From a virus, in UHGV virus genome UHGV-0175781: 44,119 bases of DNA; one strand, given 5' to 3'. Positions 1,299 through 30,559 of the stretch are shown one piece after another (the first letter of the stretch is position 1; each line of letters opens with the position of its first letter). The translations under genes were made by a program, and so were the position numbers. The notes beneath the pieces were generated by a model. It was not told the DNA's origin and did no database searches. It saw only the letters and a list, made by a program, of their open reading frames with translations.

Positions 1299-1550
1299 CT
1301 ATTTAGTCTCCGTAGTGCGGATTTCATCGCGGGGGATAAATTTGCCGTCCATCTCTAACCAGCAGACACCATAGCGCCATTGGGTGTTGCGACCTGTTTG
1401 CTCTGCGTACACAGTCCGGCATTCGTAGCGTTCCGAGTAGTAGGCACCCGCGACACCAGCGGCAGGTACGCAAACACAAACGGCAATCATGAGGGTGAGG
1501 AGCACCCAAAATCGAAGGTCGCCGTCGTAGTCGAAAAATAATGATTTCAT
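1299..1550 (-). CDS. small membrane protein
   Basis: 83 aa with one hydrophobic helix (WVLLTLMIAVCVCVPAAGVAGAY); GGAGA SD upstream of ATG 1550. Confidence 0.55.
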   Translation of the reverse strand: MKSLFFDYDGDLRFWVLLTLMIAVCVCVPAAGVAGAYYSERYECRTVYAEQTGRNTQWRYGVCWLEMDGKFIPRDEIRTTETK

Positions 1551-1597
1551 ATCACTGTCTCCGGGTATTAAAAAGGGCGTCCAAACCGGACACCCTC

Positions 1598-1626
1598 AAT
1601 ATAATGCAACCAATACGGTTATGCAA
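1598..1626 (-). promoter_or_regulatory. putative sigma70-like promoter (-35 TTGCAT, 17-bp spacer, -10 TATATT) upstream of gene 1299..1550
   Basis: read on minus strand; -35 lies inside an ATTGGTTGCAT motif, a second motif copy is in the spacer. Confidence 0.35.
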
Positions 1627-1631
1627 CCAAT

Positions 1632-1955
1632 TTACGAATAAAAATTTGGGTCGCGCGCAACGTCTACCAGATACAGGTTACTAATGCGGTTGCCATAGTG
1701 CCCTGGCGTGCGCTGGCGACACACAACGGCGTAGCCTGGAGGGATTGTATTGCCTGTCGCGATAATCCACGCCACGCGCGCTCCAGACAGCGTCTTGCCG
1801 TTGCACTCGATGCGCGTGCCACCATCGGCAGTGTTAAGGTTGCCGATCTTGCAGCCTGTGGATTTCAGGCGAATGACGCCGGTCTTGCTGTCGTAGGAAA
1901 AAAGCTGATTGGTCATTGCCACGGAAAAGTCGATGGCTTCGAATGTAGTATTCAT
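1632..1955 (-). CDS. HNH_3-like homing endonuclease-like protein, possibly degenerate
   Basis: 107 aa; pattern GK..ARVAW..TG...P.GY.VV....P...GNRISNLYLV resembles HNH_3 endonucleases but the usual His-Asp positions are replaced by CRQ. Confidence 0.4.
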   Translation of the reverse strand: MNTTFEAIDFSVAMTNQLFSYDSKTGVIRLKSTGCKIGNLNTADGGTRIECNGKTLSGARVAWIIATGNTIPPGYAVVCRQRTPGHYGNRISNLYLVDVARDPNFYS

Positions 1956-2647
1956 TTTAAATTTTCCTCATTGACCGCTATCGCGAAGCCGCGCGGGGTG
2001 AGCGACCTGATTAATTTGGTGCGGGCAGATTTGCCCCCGAGGCGACTATACTGCTTCGAGTACCCTTTTTCAACGAAAACAGGTTTCTTCTCTGGCATAC
2101 GGAAGCCGTTGCCGGTCCATAAGCAGGTCAGCTTCGGATATGAATCGCGGGCGTTGATGTATTCAGGGAATAACGGGTGTACGTCATCCTCTGGCAAATA
2201 GCCACCATACTCCCACGGGTCAAACGAGTGGTCCGGCTTACGCCATTGAGTGGATAGCACGCTGCGCGGATTCTCAATCATATATGGCACCTCAAAGAAA
2301 TCACCCAGGTAAGCGGCAATCTTCGCGGTGCGCACCGCCTTAAGCTGAAAGGCAGGGTCTTTAGCCCGCTTGCGCGGAAAAGCGGGCGCACCGCTAACTG
2401 CCAGATCCGTACACGGAGGGAACGCATATATGATATCCGGCGTACCGAAATCACCATTCATCGCGCGGTCCACGAAGTCCAGGTCTATAAACTCATTACG
2501 ATAGCGGATCCCGCGCCCATAAATCCGGTAGTCCAGGTACGATCCGTGGTCGGCTTCGGAGTAGTTGAAGCAAAAACACTTATGACCCATCTCGGCAGCA
2601 CGCTCAATCATCAAGCCGCTGCCGTCAAATAATGACCAGATAATCAT
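1952..2647 (-). CDS. short DNA (cytosine-5)-methyltransferase-like protein
   Basis: 231 aa; motif I FDGSG (FxGxG), motif IV FPPC..LAVSGA (cf. GPPCQ.FS.AG), motif VI ENP (cf. ENV); too short for a canonical target-recognition domain. Confidence 0.5.
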   Translation of the reverse strand: MIIWSLFDGSGLMIERAAEMGHKCFCFNYSEADHGSYLDYRIYGRGIRYRNEFIDLDFVDRAMNGDFGTPDIIYAFPPCTDLAVSGAPAFPRKRAKDPAFQLKAVRTAKIAAYLGDFFEVPYMIENPRSVLSTQWRKPDHSFDPWEYGGYLPEDDVHPLFPEYINARDSYPKLTCLWTGNGFRMPEKKPVFVEKGYSKQYSRLGGKSARTKLIRSLTPRGFAIAVNEENLK

Positions 2648-23158: not shown

Positions 23159-23923
23159 TTAGCGAGGAATGCCGCAAATCTCGTTGAGTGTTTTCACATC
23201 CAGCGCCACCGCCGTGGATTTTGGCTTGTCCGGGTATGGGATGAATTGCTCAACTTCAGGCCATGCTTTAATCAGCTTCTTGTCAGTATTGTGCAGGTCC
23301 AGTACACCGGTAACGGTGAGTTTGAACGCGTCATACTTCGCACGCAACTCGCGACGTGCCTTGTCGTTGCGGTCCAGGCGCTTACAGAAGTCATGGTCCG
23401 CCGGGTAGTCTGCGCGACCGCGTGGGAGATATATCGGCAGCGCTTTCCCTTCCTCGTCCACTTCGCACACTGACGCGAGCATAACTGTCTCGAACCCCGG
23501 AACGATATCGCCGAGATCAGGCGAGAGCTTATTCATATATTTCTCTTCCCAGTATCCGCGATGTACGCGGTATTGGCGACCGTCACCGCTCAAGGACAAG
23601 GTGCGAACATTTCCGCCTGCGTTGATTTCAAAGGTGGCGTCGTAAACGCTGCCGATACCCTTCGGGCGGTCGGTGTTATAACTATACGTCGCCTTGTTGG
23701 CGTATACGCTGACGCCGTACATCTGCGACTGGTCATCGCGGATTGCCTTGATATGCTCGCGTAGCGCGGCGAATGTGCGAATGCCGTCCGGCATACAGTC
23801 CAGCGTGATTGCGTACGCCAGGTCGCGAGAGTCCATCATGATTGTTTTGGCTTCGGTAGCGATTTCGTGGTCGCGCAGGATGTTAGCTAGGATCTGATTT
23901 TTAATGTCTTTCGTCAGTCTCAT
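23159..23923 (-). CDS. hypothetical protein, opposite-strand insertion in the morphogenesis block (ORF extends to 23968)
   Basis: about 254 aa; GAGGA SD before internal ATG; own predicted promoter and flanking terminators; no recognisable motif. Confidence 0.6.
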   Translation of the reverse strand: MRLTKDIKNQILANILRDHEIATEAKTIMMDSRDLAYAITLDCMPDGIRTFAALREHIKAIRDDQSQMYGVSVYANKATYSYNTDRPKGIGSVYDATFEINAGGNVRTLSLSGDGRQYRVHRGYWEEKYMNKLSPDLGDIVPGFETVMLASVCEVDEEGKALPIYLPRGRADYPADHDFCKRLDRNDKARRELRAKYDAFKLTVTGVLDLHNTDKKLIKAWPEVEQFIPYPDKPKSTAVALDVKTLNEICGIPR

Positions 23924-23989
23924 TTTTATGTCCTCATTGTTGGTGTGCAACCAATATAGCGCAACCAATTCCCGCAGTGCAAGCGAATT

Positions 23990-26983: not shown

Positions 26984-27577
26984 GTGGCTGAAGTCTACTC
27001 GTTCGCCGCCACGATTGCTACGTGGGTAGATAAGACGAAGGAGAACAACGACAAGGCTGTGCGGGCGTATGGGATGCAAATACTCGGACGCCTTATTGAG
27101 ATCTCCCCGGTGGGCGACCCTCGCCGGTGGAAGATTAACAAGGCTTATGCAATGGCCCGCCAGCACGCGAACAAGGTGAACGCCGCACAACGTCGCAAGA
27201 ATGGTGGCAAACTGAAGCGCGGTCAGAAGAAGCACGCCAGTGTGCTCGTTTCATTCAAGACTAAAAACGGCAATGTAACATTCCGGCAGCGTGGCTGGGC
27301 CGCGAAGAATTACACCGGCGGGCGCTTCCGTGGTAACTGGCAGGTGACGTTTGATCGCCCGGCTGTCGGCGCTATTGATCGCGTTGACAAGGCCGGAACG
27401 GCAACATTAGCCGCGGGGCGTGAAGTGCTGGCGCATTACGATTCGAGTGAATACGGGTCGATCTGGTTTACTAACAATGTGCCATACGCGCAGCGACTTG
27501 AGTATGGCTGGAGTAAACAAGCGCCCGCGGGGATTGTTCGCGTCGTAGCGGCAGAAATTAATTCGAAGGTGAAATAA
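26984..27577 (+). CDS. HK97 gp10-family tail component
   Basis: 197 aa; C-terminal NNVPYAQRLEYGW matches the conserved end of the HK97 gp10 family. Confidence 0.55.
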   Translation: MAEVYSFAATIATWVDKTKENNDKAVRAYGMQILGRLIEISPVGDPRRWKINKAYAMARQHANKVNAAQRRKNGGKLKRGQKKHASVLVSFKTKNGNVTFRQRGWAAKNYTGGRFRGNWQVTFDRPAVGAIDRVDKAGTATLAAGREVLAHYDSSEYGSIWFTNNVPYAQRLEYGWSKQAPAGIVRVVAAEINSKVK

Positions 27578-27999
27578 TGAGCAATACCGCAATCCGCAAA
27601 GCGCTTAACAGCGTGGTAGAAGAGTTATCGGCGCGCCTGAGCACAAGCCAGCGTCCGATCCGGGTTAACTGGGAGAACGTGCAAGGGGACCACGCAATCG
27701 GGAGTGGTGTCTACCTGGAGCCGTACCTGCTACCGGCCCCGACCCAGTTTGTGGGCCTCCAGCAAAAGGGGAGAATATATGCAGGCGTTTATCAGGTTGC
27801 CGTTGTGTTCCCCGCGGGTACTGGCACACAGTACGCGAGCGAACTGGCGGACGCCATCGCTACGTCGGATAAGTGGCTGGCGGTAAAGATTTCCGGCGCT
27901 GCATTCCAGCTTCAGGACTCGCCTTATACCAGTTCAGTGATTGAGGACGTTGATCGTGCCCGAATCGTGGTTACAGTCCCCTACACCTGTTGCGCCTAA
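27577..27999 (+). CDS. tail terminator / tail completion protein
   Basis: 140 aa; position just upstream of major tail protein. Confidence 0.45.
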   Translation: MSNTAIRKALNSVVEELSARLSTSQRPIRVNWENVQGDHAIGSGVYLEPYLLPAPTQFVGLQQKGRIYAGVYQVAVVFPAGTGTQYASELADAIATSDKWLAVKISGAAFQLQDSPYTSSVIEDVDRARIVVTVPYTCCA

Positions 28000-28589
28000 A
28001 TTAGCTCGAAGCGGTGGAACATCTCGCCGCTTTTTTTCCATTTCTTGCGCACTGTGTCGTAATTAACACCCGCGGCATCGCAAGCTGATTTTAAGTTGTA
28101 CACCCTGCCATTAAAGCGAACGTGTATTATGCGCCTTGTGTTATCAGTCTGAGTATCTTGCGACGCCCAACGGCAATTACTTGGTTCGTAGTTGCCGTTA
28201 CTGTCGATCCTGTCGAGGGTTGTACCTGCGGGACGCGGCCCCATATCTTCCAGGAAGTTCTTGAATACCCGCCAGCGGTCGCACACCGTAATCCCTCGAC
28301 CGCCATATATTTCGTATTTAGCCGCATTAGGGTTGTGGCAACGCTGAATCATACCCTCCCATGAAAACATTGTTGGCGTTCCCGTCATTCCGTGTCGCGA
28401 TCTCTTACCAAAACAAGTACATACCCAGCGCAGCGTGTCGCCTCTCATGAATTCCAATAGCGCGCCGTTAGTGCGAAGTGTCTCGCTGCCGCATACGGGG
28501 CAGGAGCAGAACCACTTAAGCCCGGGGCCTTTGCGCAACAAAGTAACGCCTCTAAATGTCATGCCTTCGAAAAGAATGCCTTTACGCAT
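27996..28589 (-). CDS. HNH homing endonuclease with N-terminal zinc-finger-like cysteines
   Basis: W..MIQRCHNPN...YEIYGGRGITVCDRW...F..DMGPRP.G.TLDRIDSNGNYEPSNCRW is the pattern of free-standing phage HNH endonucleases; opposite strand. Confidence 0.7.
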   Translation of the reverse strand: MRKGILFEGMTFRGVTLLRKGPGLKWFCSCPVCGSETLRTNGALLEFMRGDTLRWVCTCFGKRSRHGMTGTPTMFSWEGMIQRCHNPNAAKYEIYGGRGITVCDRWRVFKNFLEDMGPRPAGTTLDRIDSNGNYEPSNCRWASQDTQTDNTRRIIHVRFNGRVYNLKSACDAAGVNYDTVRKKWKKSGEMFHRFELI

Positions 28590-28704
28590 AGCCGCTCCGG
28601 TTGGTTATCAATTTTGGTGAATAGTACCGTTGGCGGTATGATTAGTCAAGACCTGAAATGTCTCAGGTTGCATATATTGTAATCCGTTGATTTAGGAGGT
28701 TATT

Positions 28705-29430
28705 TTGGGATACCAGTTACCAAATGGATCCAGCGTCCAGATTGGGTCCGTATTAGGCCACGGCATCGCTGTTACGGCAGCTACCAACGCCGCCGCGTCT
28801 ATCTCTGACCTTACGAAAGGTTGCGTTATCACCTGCGCGGCTTCTCATGGCCTGAAAGTCGGCGACGTGGTAATGTTCACTAAAACTCCGTGGGTCCGTG
28901 CGCTGAACCGAGCGTTCATCGTGGGTAAAGTGGCTACCAACGACGTTACGCTGGCGCGCTTCGATACTCAAGACGCCACCAAATACCCGACCGGTGCTTT
29001 CAGCGTAGGCACACCAGGCGAGGTGGTGAAGGTGTCGAGCTTTATCGACTTCCCGTTTATCACTAACGTCGCCGTGTCTGGTGGCGACCAGCAGACTACT
29101 ACCTTCCAGCCGTTGCAGGTGAATACTGCGATCAGTCTGAATACCACGAAAAACCCGTTGGTCCAGACCTACACTTTCACCCACGACGAAGAAGACCCGA
29201 TCCGCCCGATTCTGGAAGACCTGGACGACACACAGAAAACCACTGTGATTAAGTTCACCAACCCGGCAGCGGCAAGCGGCAAAGGTGAAATTCGTATTTA
29301 CCCGGCTAAGGTGTCTTTCCAGAAGATTCCGTCCGCTGAAGTAAACAACGTGGAGACGGTGGAGTCTACTCTGACCATGCAATCCGATATGGTTATTTAC
29401 CGTAAGGACCTGGTTGAAGCGCTGTCGTAA
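28705..29430 (+). CDS. major tail protein (TTG start)
   Basis: 241 aa; perfect AGGAGG SD 6 nt before the TTG; followed by a terminator; precedes G/GT and tape measure. Confidence 0.65.
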   Translation: MGYQLPNGSSVQIGSVLGHGIAVTAATNAAASISDLTKGCVITCAASHGLKVGDVVMFTKTPWVRALNRAFIVGKVATNDVTLARFDTQDATKYPTGAFSVGTPGEVVKVSSFIDFPFITNVAVSGGDQQTTTFQPLQVNTAISLNTTKNPLVQTYTFTHDEEDPIRPILEDLDDTQKTTVIKFTNPAAASGKGEIRIYPAKVSFQKIPSAEVNNVETVESTLTMQSDMVIYRKDLVEALS

Positions 29431-29861: not shown

Positions 29862-30175
29862 TTGAGGCGGCGCGACGCTTTTATGGCCCGCCGCCACCCT
29901 CCGAAGATTTAGCCGCGAGTTTATGGGGCGCGGCCCCTGAAGATGTTTGCCCACCAGTTGCGCTATGGCCCGACAACGCGAAGGTAGTCGCAGTCTTCAC
30001 AGATTGCTCCACGCAATGGCGCACCGGATTCGGTGGCGCATACGGCATCGACTACGGCGTACTGGAATGGCTGTTTAAGATGCATGGCGTCGAAAACGCG
30101 CAGCGTGCGTTTAAAGATATTAAGCTAATGGAACGCGTTGCGCTGGATGAAATGGCGCGGCAGAACCCCGCATAA
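29499..30175 (+). CDS. tail assembly chaperone GT fusion made by programmed -1 ribosomal frameshift
   Basis: slippery A AAA AAC at about 29852..29858; the -1 frame stays open for about 105 codons to TAA at 30173..30175 (hand translation ends ...LMERVALDEMARQNPA). Confidence 0.6.
29852..29858 (+). other. slippery heptanucleotide A_AAA_AAC for -1 frameshifting
   Basis: seen in sequence: XXXYYYZ heptamer in correct register with the G frame, directly before the G stop codon. Confidence 0.6.
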
Positions 30176-30177
30176 CG

Positions 30178-30491
30178 GAGCGGGACAGGCGGGACGTCCC
30201 GTTTTGTCCCGCCACCATTAAACAGCATATATACTCACTTTCATTGCATAAATTAAAAGCGGGACAGGGGTGCTGTCCCGATCTGTCCCGCCTCCAAAAT
30301 GTGAATATCTATTCAGTTTTCGTGCATAAAACAAACGGGACAAAAAGCGGGACAGAATGGGGCGGGACAAGGCGGGACAGCACCCCTGTCCCCGCCAGTG
30401 CTGCCGCGGGTTTTAGCCGATCGGGACAGGCGGGACAAAGCCCAGTCTTTCAGACTAGACGGGGGTCATTGGCCCCCCTCGTCTGAGACTG
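30178..30491. repeat. iteron array copy 2: about 14 GCGGGACA(R) units in both orientations, palindrome CGGGACGTCCCG, then a conserved bulged hairpin
   Basis: seen in sequence; 30330..30491 is about 85% identical to 14072..14231. Confidence 0.8.
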
Positions 30492-30559
30492 AATAAGGTT
30501 TGTTTTAAATTCGCTGATACAATGACCGACGGCAACTGCATAAAAAGGGGGACTGCATA

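Follow-up and report, generated by a model that had tools for sequence, protein, structure and literature searches.

The DNA analyzed here, a 44,119-nucleotide (nt) stretch of the virus genome UHGV-0175781 (hereafter the window), comes from a Dhillonvirus, an HK578/EP23-like siphophage of Escherichia coli. On its minus strand, between the genes of the tail terminator and the major tail protein, lies a gene of 197 codons at positions 27996..28589 that encodes a putative endonuclease. We propose, with a probability of roughly 0.7, that it belongs to the free-standing homing endonuclease genes and represents a selfish mobile element, which is carried by a minority of Dhillonvirus-like phages and always occupies the spacer between the terminator and major tail genes. 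A first-pass annotation, made by a model from the sequence without database searches, had already read the gene as a mobile homing endonuclease. This reading is supported in substance by the sporadic presence of the gene, its fixed site and the decoupled divergence of its flanks, and is corrected below in its biochemical detail.

Hardly any close relative carries the endonuclease gene, and the site at which it is lacking is sharply bounded. A 3-kb query around it matched 159 phage records at 80%–95% identity, nearly all of them Escherichia/Shigella Dhillonvirus phages. The full query was spanned by a single record, Escherichia phage JLBYU27, in which the gene is annotated as a hypothetical protein; the other 158 records align as two pieces, skipping about 644 bp. 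Among the IMG/VR relatives in which both flanking genes were located, the gene was found in none of 17, and the spacer measures 60–61 bp in the 15 IMG/VR relatives that were read directly. In a three-way alignment, the distance from the terminator stop to the major tail start is 61 bp in EP23, versus 705 bp in both the window and JLBYU27. A presence/absence polymorphism located exactly at 27996..28589, which the first-pass annotation had envisaged, is thus found among these relatives; far from being universally present with conserved flanks, the gene is lacking in nearly all of them.

The open reading frame (ORF) runs from an ATG at 28587–28589 to a TAG at 27996–27998, in agreement with the limits and the strand proposed at first, and the peptide strings quoted for it at that time (RCHNPN, YGGRGITVCDRW and DRIDSNGNYEPSNCRW) all occur in its translation. 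At least 7985 homologues were scored, the closest at an E value of 9e-122, and the ratio of nonsynonymous to synonymous substitution (dN/dS) is 0.10–0.23 against three close homologues and 0.08–0.23 over all pairs. These homologues and dN/dS values set the ORF apart from a chance reading frame; it is real, intact and under purifying selection. Pfam and PHROGs matches of both flanks also bear out the placement between tail completion and major tail genes, "tail completion" being the name given to the terminator gene in JLBYU27. Both flanking ORFs are full length beside the insert. The stop codons of the terminator and endonuclease genes overlap tail to tail (CTAA, 27996–27999), and the terminator stop is TAA in the window versus TGA in the insert-less phages.

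Homologues in the same niche were found on nine other contigs, with 92%–54% identity to the endonuclease of the window. The database homologues P0001, P0003, P0004, P0006 and P0007 are 88%, 72%, 60%, 56% and 54% identical to it, and the metagenomic loci 92%, 66% and 61%. In every contig long enough to include both neighbors, the gene is flanked by the terminator and major tail genes and runs opposite to them. The divergence of the endonuclease is decoupled from that of the flanking genes. In contigs L060 and L061, the endonuclease is 54%–56% identical to that of the window, with flanking proteins of merely 32%–38% identity; in L058, it is 72% identical, with flanks of 89%–98%. Between the window and JLBYU27, the synonymous divergence (dS) of the endonuclease amounts to 0.73, against 0.18 and 0.26 for the flanking genes. 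Similarly, the flanking proteins of the window share 96%–97% identity with those of insert-less phages versus 86% and 95% with those of the insert-bearing L062. In addition, P0003, the protein encoded by L058, is a recombinant, in which residues 1–60 are P0004-like and residues 60–194 are P0001-like, a mosaic that points to an exchange between two insert types inside the gene. Taken together, the decoupled divergence and the recombinant are consistent with an element whose site is fixed and which moves or is exchanged there.

Comparison of insert-bearing and insert-less phages further revealed a recoded start of the major tail gene. At 20 insert-less loci, distant ones included, this gene starts with ATG GGT TAT CAA YTN CCN AAC GG, versus TTG GGA TAC CAG TTA CCA AAT GGA in the window. 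All of the first eight codons differ from the insert-less consensus, through the replacement of the ATG start by TTG and seven silent changes, which leave the protein the same. Over 4294 aligned columns, the window has 37 bases found in none of the 13 close insert-less genomes, and nine of these bases fall within the 27 nt at 28705..28731; the next-best interval away from the junction holds three such private bases. The window and the nine loci, which together make up the ten insert-bearing sequences, each have an in-frame stop 4–5 codons upstream and no ATG ahead of the conserved GYQLPNGS peptide. The start codon is ATG at 20 of 20 insert-less loci versus TTG or ATC in 10 of 10 insert-bearing sequences. 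TTG is found in the window, JLBYU27, L062–L064 and L067, and ATC in L058, L059, L060, L061 and L069. Ahead of the major tail gene, the Shine-Dalgarno sequence is CAGGAG in insert-less phages and TAGGAGG or TAAGGA in insert-bearing ones.

The five metagenomic contigs with ATC (L058–L061 and L069) are independent of each other; each has an in-frame TAA 4–5 codons upstream and keeps the N-terminal peptide, with synonymous differences between the contigs. As read from these sequences, the arrangement implies AUC initiation on a major structural gene, which would be highly atypical of an E. coli-type system. Initiation at AUC in E. coli reporters reaches merely 1%–2% of that from AUG (bioRxiv 10.1101/063800). 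The intergenic region of L058 next to the N-terminal end of the endonuclease, including the ATC allele, resembles that of L059, the contig of P0004. The recoded allele occurs in none of 157 insert-less records, where it would have indicated loss after invasion. DNA pattern scans of IMG/VR for the TTG and ATC alleles gave one match each, both by chance and in unrelated genes. The sole DNA conserved across all phages that host this endonuclease lineage is the 5′ coding stretch of the major tail gene. We propose that this stretch contains the recognition site. Its peptide MGYQLPNGS is conserved across distant phages, and in insert-less phages the first 12 codons are not exceptionally invariant at the DNA level, since four of the 12 vary, versus 65% of codons overall. 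From this comparison, we infer that the recoded start of the major tail gene represents target-site immunity.

The endonuclease is matched by PHROGs "HNH endonuclease" families at E values of 1.6e-45 and 9e-45. Sequence searches of Pfam, NCBIfam and the PDB, with the single protein or a 91-sequence profile, gave no nuclease match. No HNH family was hit by the endonuclease in NCBIfam or in Pfam at E values up to 1, nor by any of the 91 members at E values up to 0.01, and the core of the family is matched by no Pfam model. As these sequence-based domain searches yielded no nuclease, the fold was assigned from structure prediction. The AlphaFold2 model built on the 91-sequence alignment has a mean predicted local distance difference test (pLDDT) score of 90.2 and is composed of three parts. 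In the N-terminal Cys-rich module, Cys30, Cys33 and Cys59 are nearly invariant in alignment A2, and all four Cys residues are invariant in the close clade (A5); the module is probably a zinc-binding DNA-recognition module. The central core contains a β-hairpin (residues 123–127 and 139–143) followed by a helix (residues 144–149). Fold searches with Foldseek (E values of 0.2–0.4) gave I-HmuI as the top match and pointed to the His-Me finger superfamily, with PacI closest. We thus predict from the model that the core is a member of this superfamily, nearest to PacI. For the C-terminal domain, the Foldseek matches include the I-TevI DNA-binding domain (1i3j) and Fis, and family members match the Pfam models HTH_8 and I-TevI_DNA-bd. 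As to the HNH assignment of the first-pass annotation, PHROGs, the AlphaFold model and the fold searches argue for a His-Me finger, and Pfam, NCBIfam and PDB sequence searches give no match in its support.

The family to which the endonuclease belongs comprises 195,398 representative clusters (50% identity) at E values up to 0.001, and 1194 phage records. Some of its other top matches hold two to three nuclease cores within one protein. The N-terminal Cys module, of about 58 residues (FGxLTV..W.C.C.CG...L..G...SCGC), also forms tandem arrays of at least 10 copies in P0144 (895 residues), P0255 and other proteins, in which the nuclease core is lacking and a helix-turn-helix region forms the C-terminal end. 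This distribution suggests that the Cys module is an autonomous and repeatable DNA-binding module.

In the alignment of 91 family members, Trp77, Arg83, Tyr95, Gly96, Gly99, Trp106, Phe112, Asp115, Arg127, Tyr134, Asn138, Trp141 and Gln147 are invariant, and His66, Cys84, Cys103, Asp126, Cys139 and Asn150 are nearly invariant. By contrast with its original reading as part of a hallmark HNH pattern, the histidine of the RCHNPN string, His85, is variable across the family (His, Tyr, Thr, Cys or Ser). It was thus ruled out as part of an H-N-H motif, and the core is instead formed by Asp126-Arg127, Tyr134 and Asn138. At the position of the canonical Asp-His pair, the invariant Arg127 takes the place of the catalytic His. 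The segment LDRIDSNGNYEPSNCRWA of the endonuclease aligns without gaps to GVDRSDSFEGYSPQNARLA of PacI via hhalign. A Tyr and an Asn follow the Arg by 7 and 11 residues, respectively, so that the spacing of Arg127 and Tyr134 equals that of Arg93 and Tyr100 in PacI. Moreover, six residues invariant in the PacI family (Asp92, Arg93, Tyr100, Asn104, Arg106 and Ala108) match invariant or nearly invariant residues of the endonuclease. PacI lacks a catalytic His, the role of which is taken over by a loop tyrosine (PMC5714182); its single metal ion is coordinated by the side chains of Asp92 and Asn113, with the Tyr acting as the base (PMC4081073). Tyr134 is predicted from the alignment to occupy the PacI-type loop position for the role of base or nucleophile. 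At the position of the PacI metal ligand Asn113, the endonuclease has the invariant Gln147, with the nearly invariant Asn150 three residues further on. Cys30, Cys33, Cys57 and Cys59 could be the counterpart of the first zinc site of PacI. Its second Cys4 set (Cys63, Cys66, Cys109 and Cys112) has no counterpart, and Cys84, Cys103, Cys139 and possibly His66 are conserved elsewhere in the endonuclease. Given the marginal profile–profile statistics (hhalign E value of 0.004 and probability of 8.5%, and no PDB match by hmmsearch), we word the relationship with caution: the endonuclease probably works like PacI and is probably related to it, rather than being a proven member of the PacI family. F-CphI was also considered as a relative and ruled out, as it has an Endo VII motif.

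These comparisons enable us to propose a putative model of homing. Initially, the protein would bind the junction DNA of an insert-less genome, probably as an extended monomer through its two flanking modules. The recognition site would most likely be the conserved first ~25 bases of the major tail gene (ATGGGTTATCAAYTNCCNAAYGG). During mixed infection, the insert-less allele would be cut or nicked at an active site in which a single metal ion is held by Asp126 together with Gln147 or Asn150, and in which Tyr134 replaces the missing His. Afterwards, recombinational repair from the insert-bearing genome would copy the gene along with a short stretch of flanking DNA. The insert-bearing genomes would escape self-cleavage via the silent recoding of the target stretch and the replacement of ATG by TTG, as in the window, or by ATC, as in other lineages.

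Several points weigh against this model. Cleavage, target and homing are all inferred for the endonuclease and its close relatives, and the sole PacI-like phage enzyme tested in vivo, from Skunavirus H1-93, was not among the two that lowered plaquing (PMC12724721). Support for the fold at the sequence level is weak, with empty Pfam, NCBIfam and PDB searches, an hhalign probability of 8.5% and Foldseek E values of 0.2–0.4; a Gln stands at the position of the metal-binding Asn of PacI, and the second Cys4 zinc site of PacI is not conserved. The recoded flank could be a co-conversion tract from a divergent donor, instead of an immunity allele under selection. The ATC start in the clade of L060, L061 and L069 may be a lineage trait, given that no insert-less relative of this clade was found in IMG/VR and the phage collection, which yielded just distant proteins of at most 43% identity. 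Finally, the promoter-like and terminator-like sites around the gene do not exceed the frequency in shuffled sequence.

The homing reading has to be weighed against three other explanations. The gene might be an accessory nuclease (a "moron"), gained once by illegitimate recombination and used against the host or competing phages, its sporadic presence then resulting from vertical descent and repeated loss. In line with this, the tail-to-tail stop overlap is shared by the window, L059 and L062, a sign of long residence. Moreover, highly divergent phages have a member of the clade in this niche, and the family is enormous and occurs in many contexts. However, in more than 170 genomes the losses would have to restore both the ATG allele and the same 60–61-bp spacer with precision. 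The different divergence of endonuclease and flanks and the concentration of the recoding in the 27 nt adjoining the insert also argue against such an origin, and exchange at a fixed site fits the L058 recombinant between two insert types better. We consider a single gain of this kind unlikely. Similarly unlikely is a catalytically dead and domesticated DNA-binding protein, which might regulate the expression of tail genes and which, having lost the catalytic His, would be kept as an accessory gene instead of a nuclease. An invariant Arg indeed stands in place of this His, no Pfam or NCBIfam HNH model matches, and both flanking modules are of DNA-binding type, the N-terminal one also occurring in core-less arrays. 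The gene lies directly upstream of, and divergent from, a major tail gene with an altered translation start, and His-Me fingers without the His or Tyr are known as inactive DNA binders, such as Smad MH1 (PMC5714182). Nevertheless, PacI is active with exactly this Asp-Arg, Tyr and Asn arrangement, and Asp126, Arg127, Tyr134 and Asn138 are invariant or nearly so over 91 diverse members, which is unexpected for a dead site. Besides, more than 99% of the sister phages do without the gene, which is therefore not a needed regulator.

An HNH protein associated with the terminase, like HK97 gp74, and required for cos cleavage and packaging, is suggested by the location of the gene inside the morphogenesis module and by the PHROGs label "HNH endonuclease". 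The gene is not beside the terminase and portal genes (~18.7–21.6 kb), and the protein has neither canonical H-N-H residues nor a Pfam HNH match. Moreover, the gene is missing from 158 of 159 relatives, by which this explanation is effectively refuted.

Table 1. Features of the endonuclease locus and its surroundings in the window
Feature	Position	Strand	Basis
Free-standing endonuclease gene	27996..28589	-	ORF; PHROGs "HNH endonuclease" matches; dN/dS; AlphaFold2 pLDDT 90.2
N-terminal Cys-rich β module, residues 9–60 (C30, C33, C57, C59)	28410..28565	-	Model: three strands and a helix; weak C4 zinc-finger Pfam match
Conserved core, residues 66–152, predicted His-Me finger (ββα-metal) nuclease domain, PacI type	28134..28394	-	AlphaFold model and fold searches
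Predicted active-site stretch DRIDSNGNYEPSNCRWASQDTQTDN (D126, R127, Y134, N138, Q147, N150)	28140..28214	-	Gap-free alignment to PacI 92–116, DRSDSFEGYSPQNARLACFICNRIK
C-terminal helix-turn-helix-like DNA-binding domain, residues 155–197 (predicted)	27999..28127	-	Model: two strands and two helices; Foldseek; Pfam matches of family members
Replacement segment, 705 bp for the 60–61-bp terminator/major-tail spacer	28000..28704		Three-way alignment; spacers of 16 insert-less loci; 158 of 159 records without ~644 bp
Divergent control region	28590..28704		Endonuclease 5′ leader, candidate minus-strand promoter, new major tail Shine-Dalgarno TAGGAGG
Recoded 5′ end of the major tail gene, TTG start and silent changes in codons 2–8; proposed immunized target site	28705..28731	+	Comparison with insert-less genomes
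Tail terminator gene (left flank)	27577..27999	+	Pfam PF13554 Phage_tail_terminator_5, E 2.6e-16; phrog_179
Major tail (tube) protein gene (right flank), 241 residues, TTG start	28705..29430	+	PF08813 Phage_tail_3, E 2.8e-32; phrog_584 "major tail protein", E 9e-75

In the divergent control region, a GGAG is located 5 nt ahead of the endonuclease ATG, and a candidate promoter, TTGACT-17-TACTAT, lies on the minus strand at 28649..28621; it is a single site, no more than shuffled sequences give. Just past the terminator-gene stop and within the 3′ coding end of the endonuclease, a hairpin with a 10-bp stem is followed by a T run on the plus strand (28008..28033). As the one candidate of its kind, it does not make terminator-like sites more frequent than in shuffled sequence. 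If it is a working terminator, it would cut the read-through into the major tail gene. A search with Rfam found no group I intron or other known RNA in the window.

The surrounding genes had been described as a co-directional structural operon. Both neighbors of the endonuclease gene are indeed on the plus strand, but the same block holds a second, conserved minus-strand gene at 23159..23968, which matches phrog_1965 (function not assigned) at an E value of 5e-63. For the region around it, 137 of 154 matching records span at least 80% of the query, and SSL-2009a, SD276 and Lzu_P3 have ~360 bp of extra DNA nearby, which represents another indel polymorphism. The first-pass annotation also listed a second HNH_3-like gene at 1632..1955, thought to be catalytically degenerate. 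The gene exists, encoding 107 residues on the minus strand next to a DNA methyltransferase gene, and matches phrog_99 "HNH endonuclease" at an E value of 2e-16. Its Pfam HNH_3 match is sub-threshold (E value of 0.07), and the protein may be a His-less variant, not simply a degenerate one. Inspected by eye, its motif VVCRQRTPGHYGNRISNL has an Arg for the HNH_3 His and, at +7 from it, a Tyr, a spacing shared with PacI and the 27996..28589 protein. A query of 1500..2100, which contains this gene, was spanned to at least 80% by 150 of 154 matching Dhillonvirus records. The tail assembly chaperone and tape measure genes are separated by about 700 bp (29862..30559) that contain no ORF of at least 90 residues, with a gap of comparable size in EP23; this segment presumably holds a frameshifted extension of the chaperone. 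JLBYU27 has ~560 bp more in this gap, with several small annotated ORFs.

As phages commonly carry free-standing homing endonuclease genes, the basic finding is ordinary. What appears noteworthy beyond an ordinary homing gene, as far as sequence comparison goes, is the His-less PacI-like site, the very large family, and the link between the insert and the loss of the ATG. The family is routinely labeled "HNH endonuclease", though it has neither the catalytic His nor a Pfam or NCBIfam match; if the PacI-like Tyr chemistry is true, this label would be either grounded or corrected. The tie between the insert and the loss of the major tail ATG suggests that a selfish element can reshape the translation initiation of an essential gene of its host. 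If the start codon is the target, a direct and measurable translational cost or rewiring would fall on one of the most highly expressed structural genes. A natural experiment for mapping the target is available in the contrast between more than 170 insert-less genomes and ten insert-bearing sequences, with boundaries defined to the base pair. A more far-reaching interpretation, which we advance only tentatively and hold to be rather doubtful, is that the family is a distinct class of monomeric homing endonucleases with PacI-like, Tyr-dependent and His-less chemistry, the recognition site of which spans the major tail start codon in this case, so that carriage forces the change from ATG to TTG or the very weak ATC.

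The T4-type free-standing Seg and Mob genes, which exemplify intronless homing, are located between conserved genes, occur sporadically, and home by cleavage and repair with co-conversion, immunity being conferred by differences in the target. The endonuclease gene of the window resembles them in its position between conserved genes and in its sporadic distribution among relatives. Seg enzymes are of the GIY-YIG type, and Mob enzymes are canonical HNH enzymes; we know of no case in which immunity is tied to the loss of the ATG start of the target gene. I-HmuI of phage SPO1 (PDB 1U3E), the top Foldseek match, is likewise a phage homing enzyme of extended, modular build, in which a His-Me finger core is combined with a C-terminal helix-turn-helix. 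However, I-HmuI is intron-encoded and has a canonical Asp74-His75 and Asn96 site, whereas the present gene is intergenic and has Asp-Arg instead of Asp-His. Compared by description only, the PacI-like HNH endonucleases of lactococcal Skunavirus, which were classed by remote homology, are also phage-encoded, free-standing and sporadic, at one fixed site of the morphogenesis module (PMC12724721), in a different phage group and host. The reference for the predicted chemistry is R.PacI (PDB 3LDY and 3M7K), of His-Me finger group 20 of Jablonska et al. 2017, a bacterial homodimer of 142-residue subunits that cleaves an 8-bp palindrome, with two Cys4 zinc sites per subunit and without a C-terminal helix-turn-helix. 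The endonuclease differs from R.PacI in the metal ligand at +20, which is Gln (with an Asn at +23), in the lack of a conserved second Cys4 site, in the added helix-turn-helix, and in being encoded by a phage-borne mobile gene. In its predicted active site, it is reminiscent of R.PacI, with Arg for His, Tyr 7 residues on, and the same spacing of the Asp-Arg, Tyr and Asn residues.

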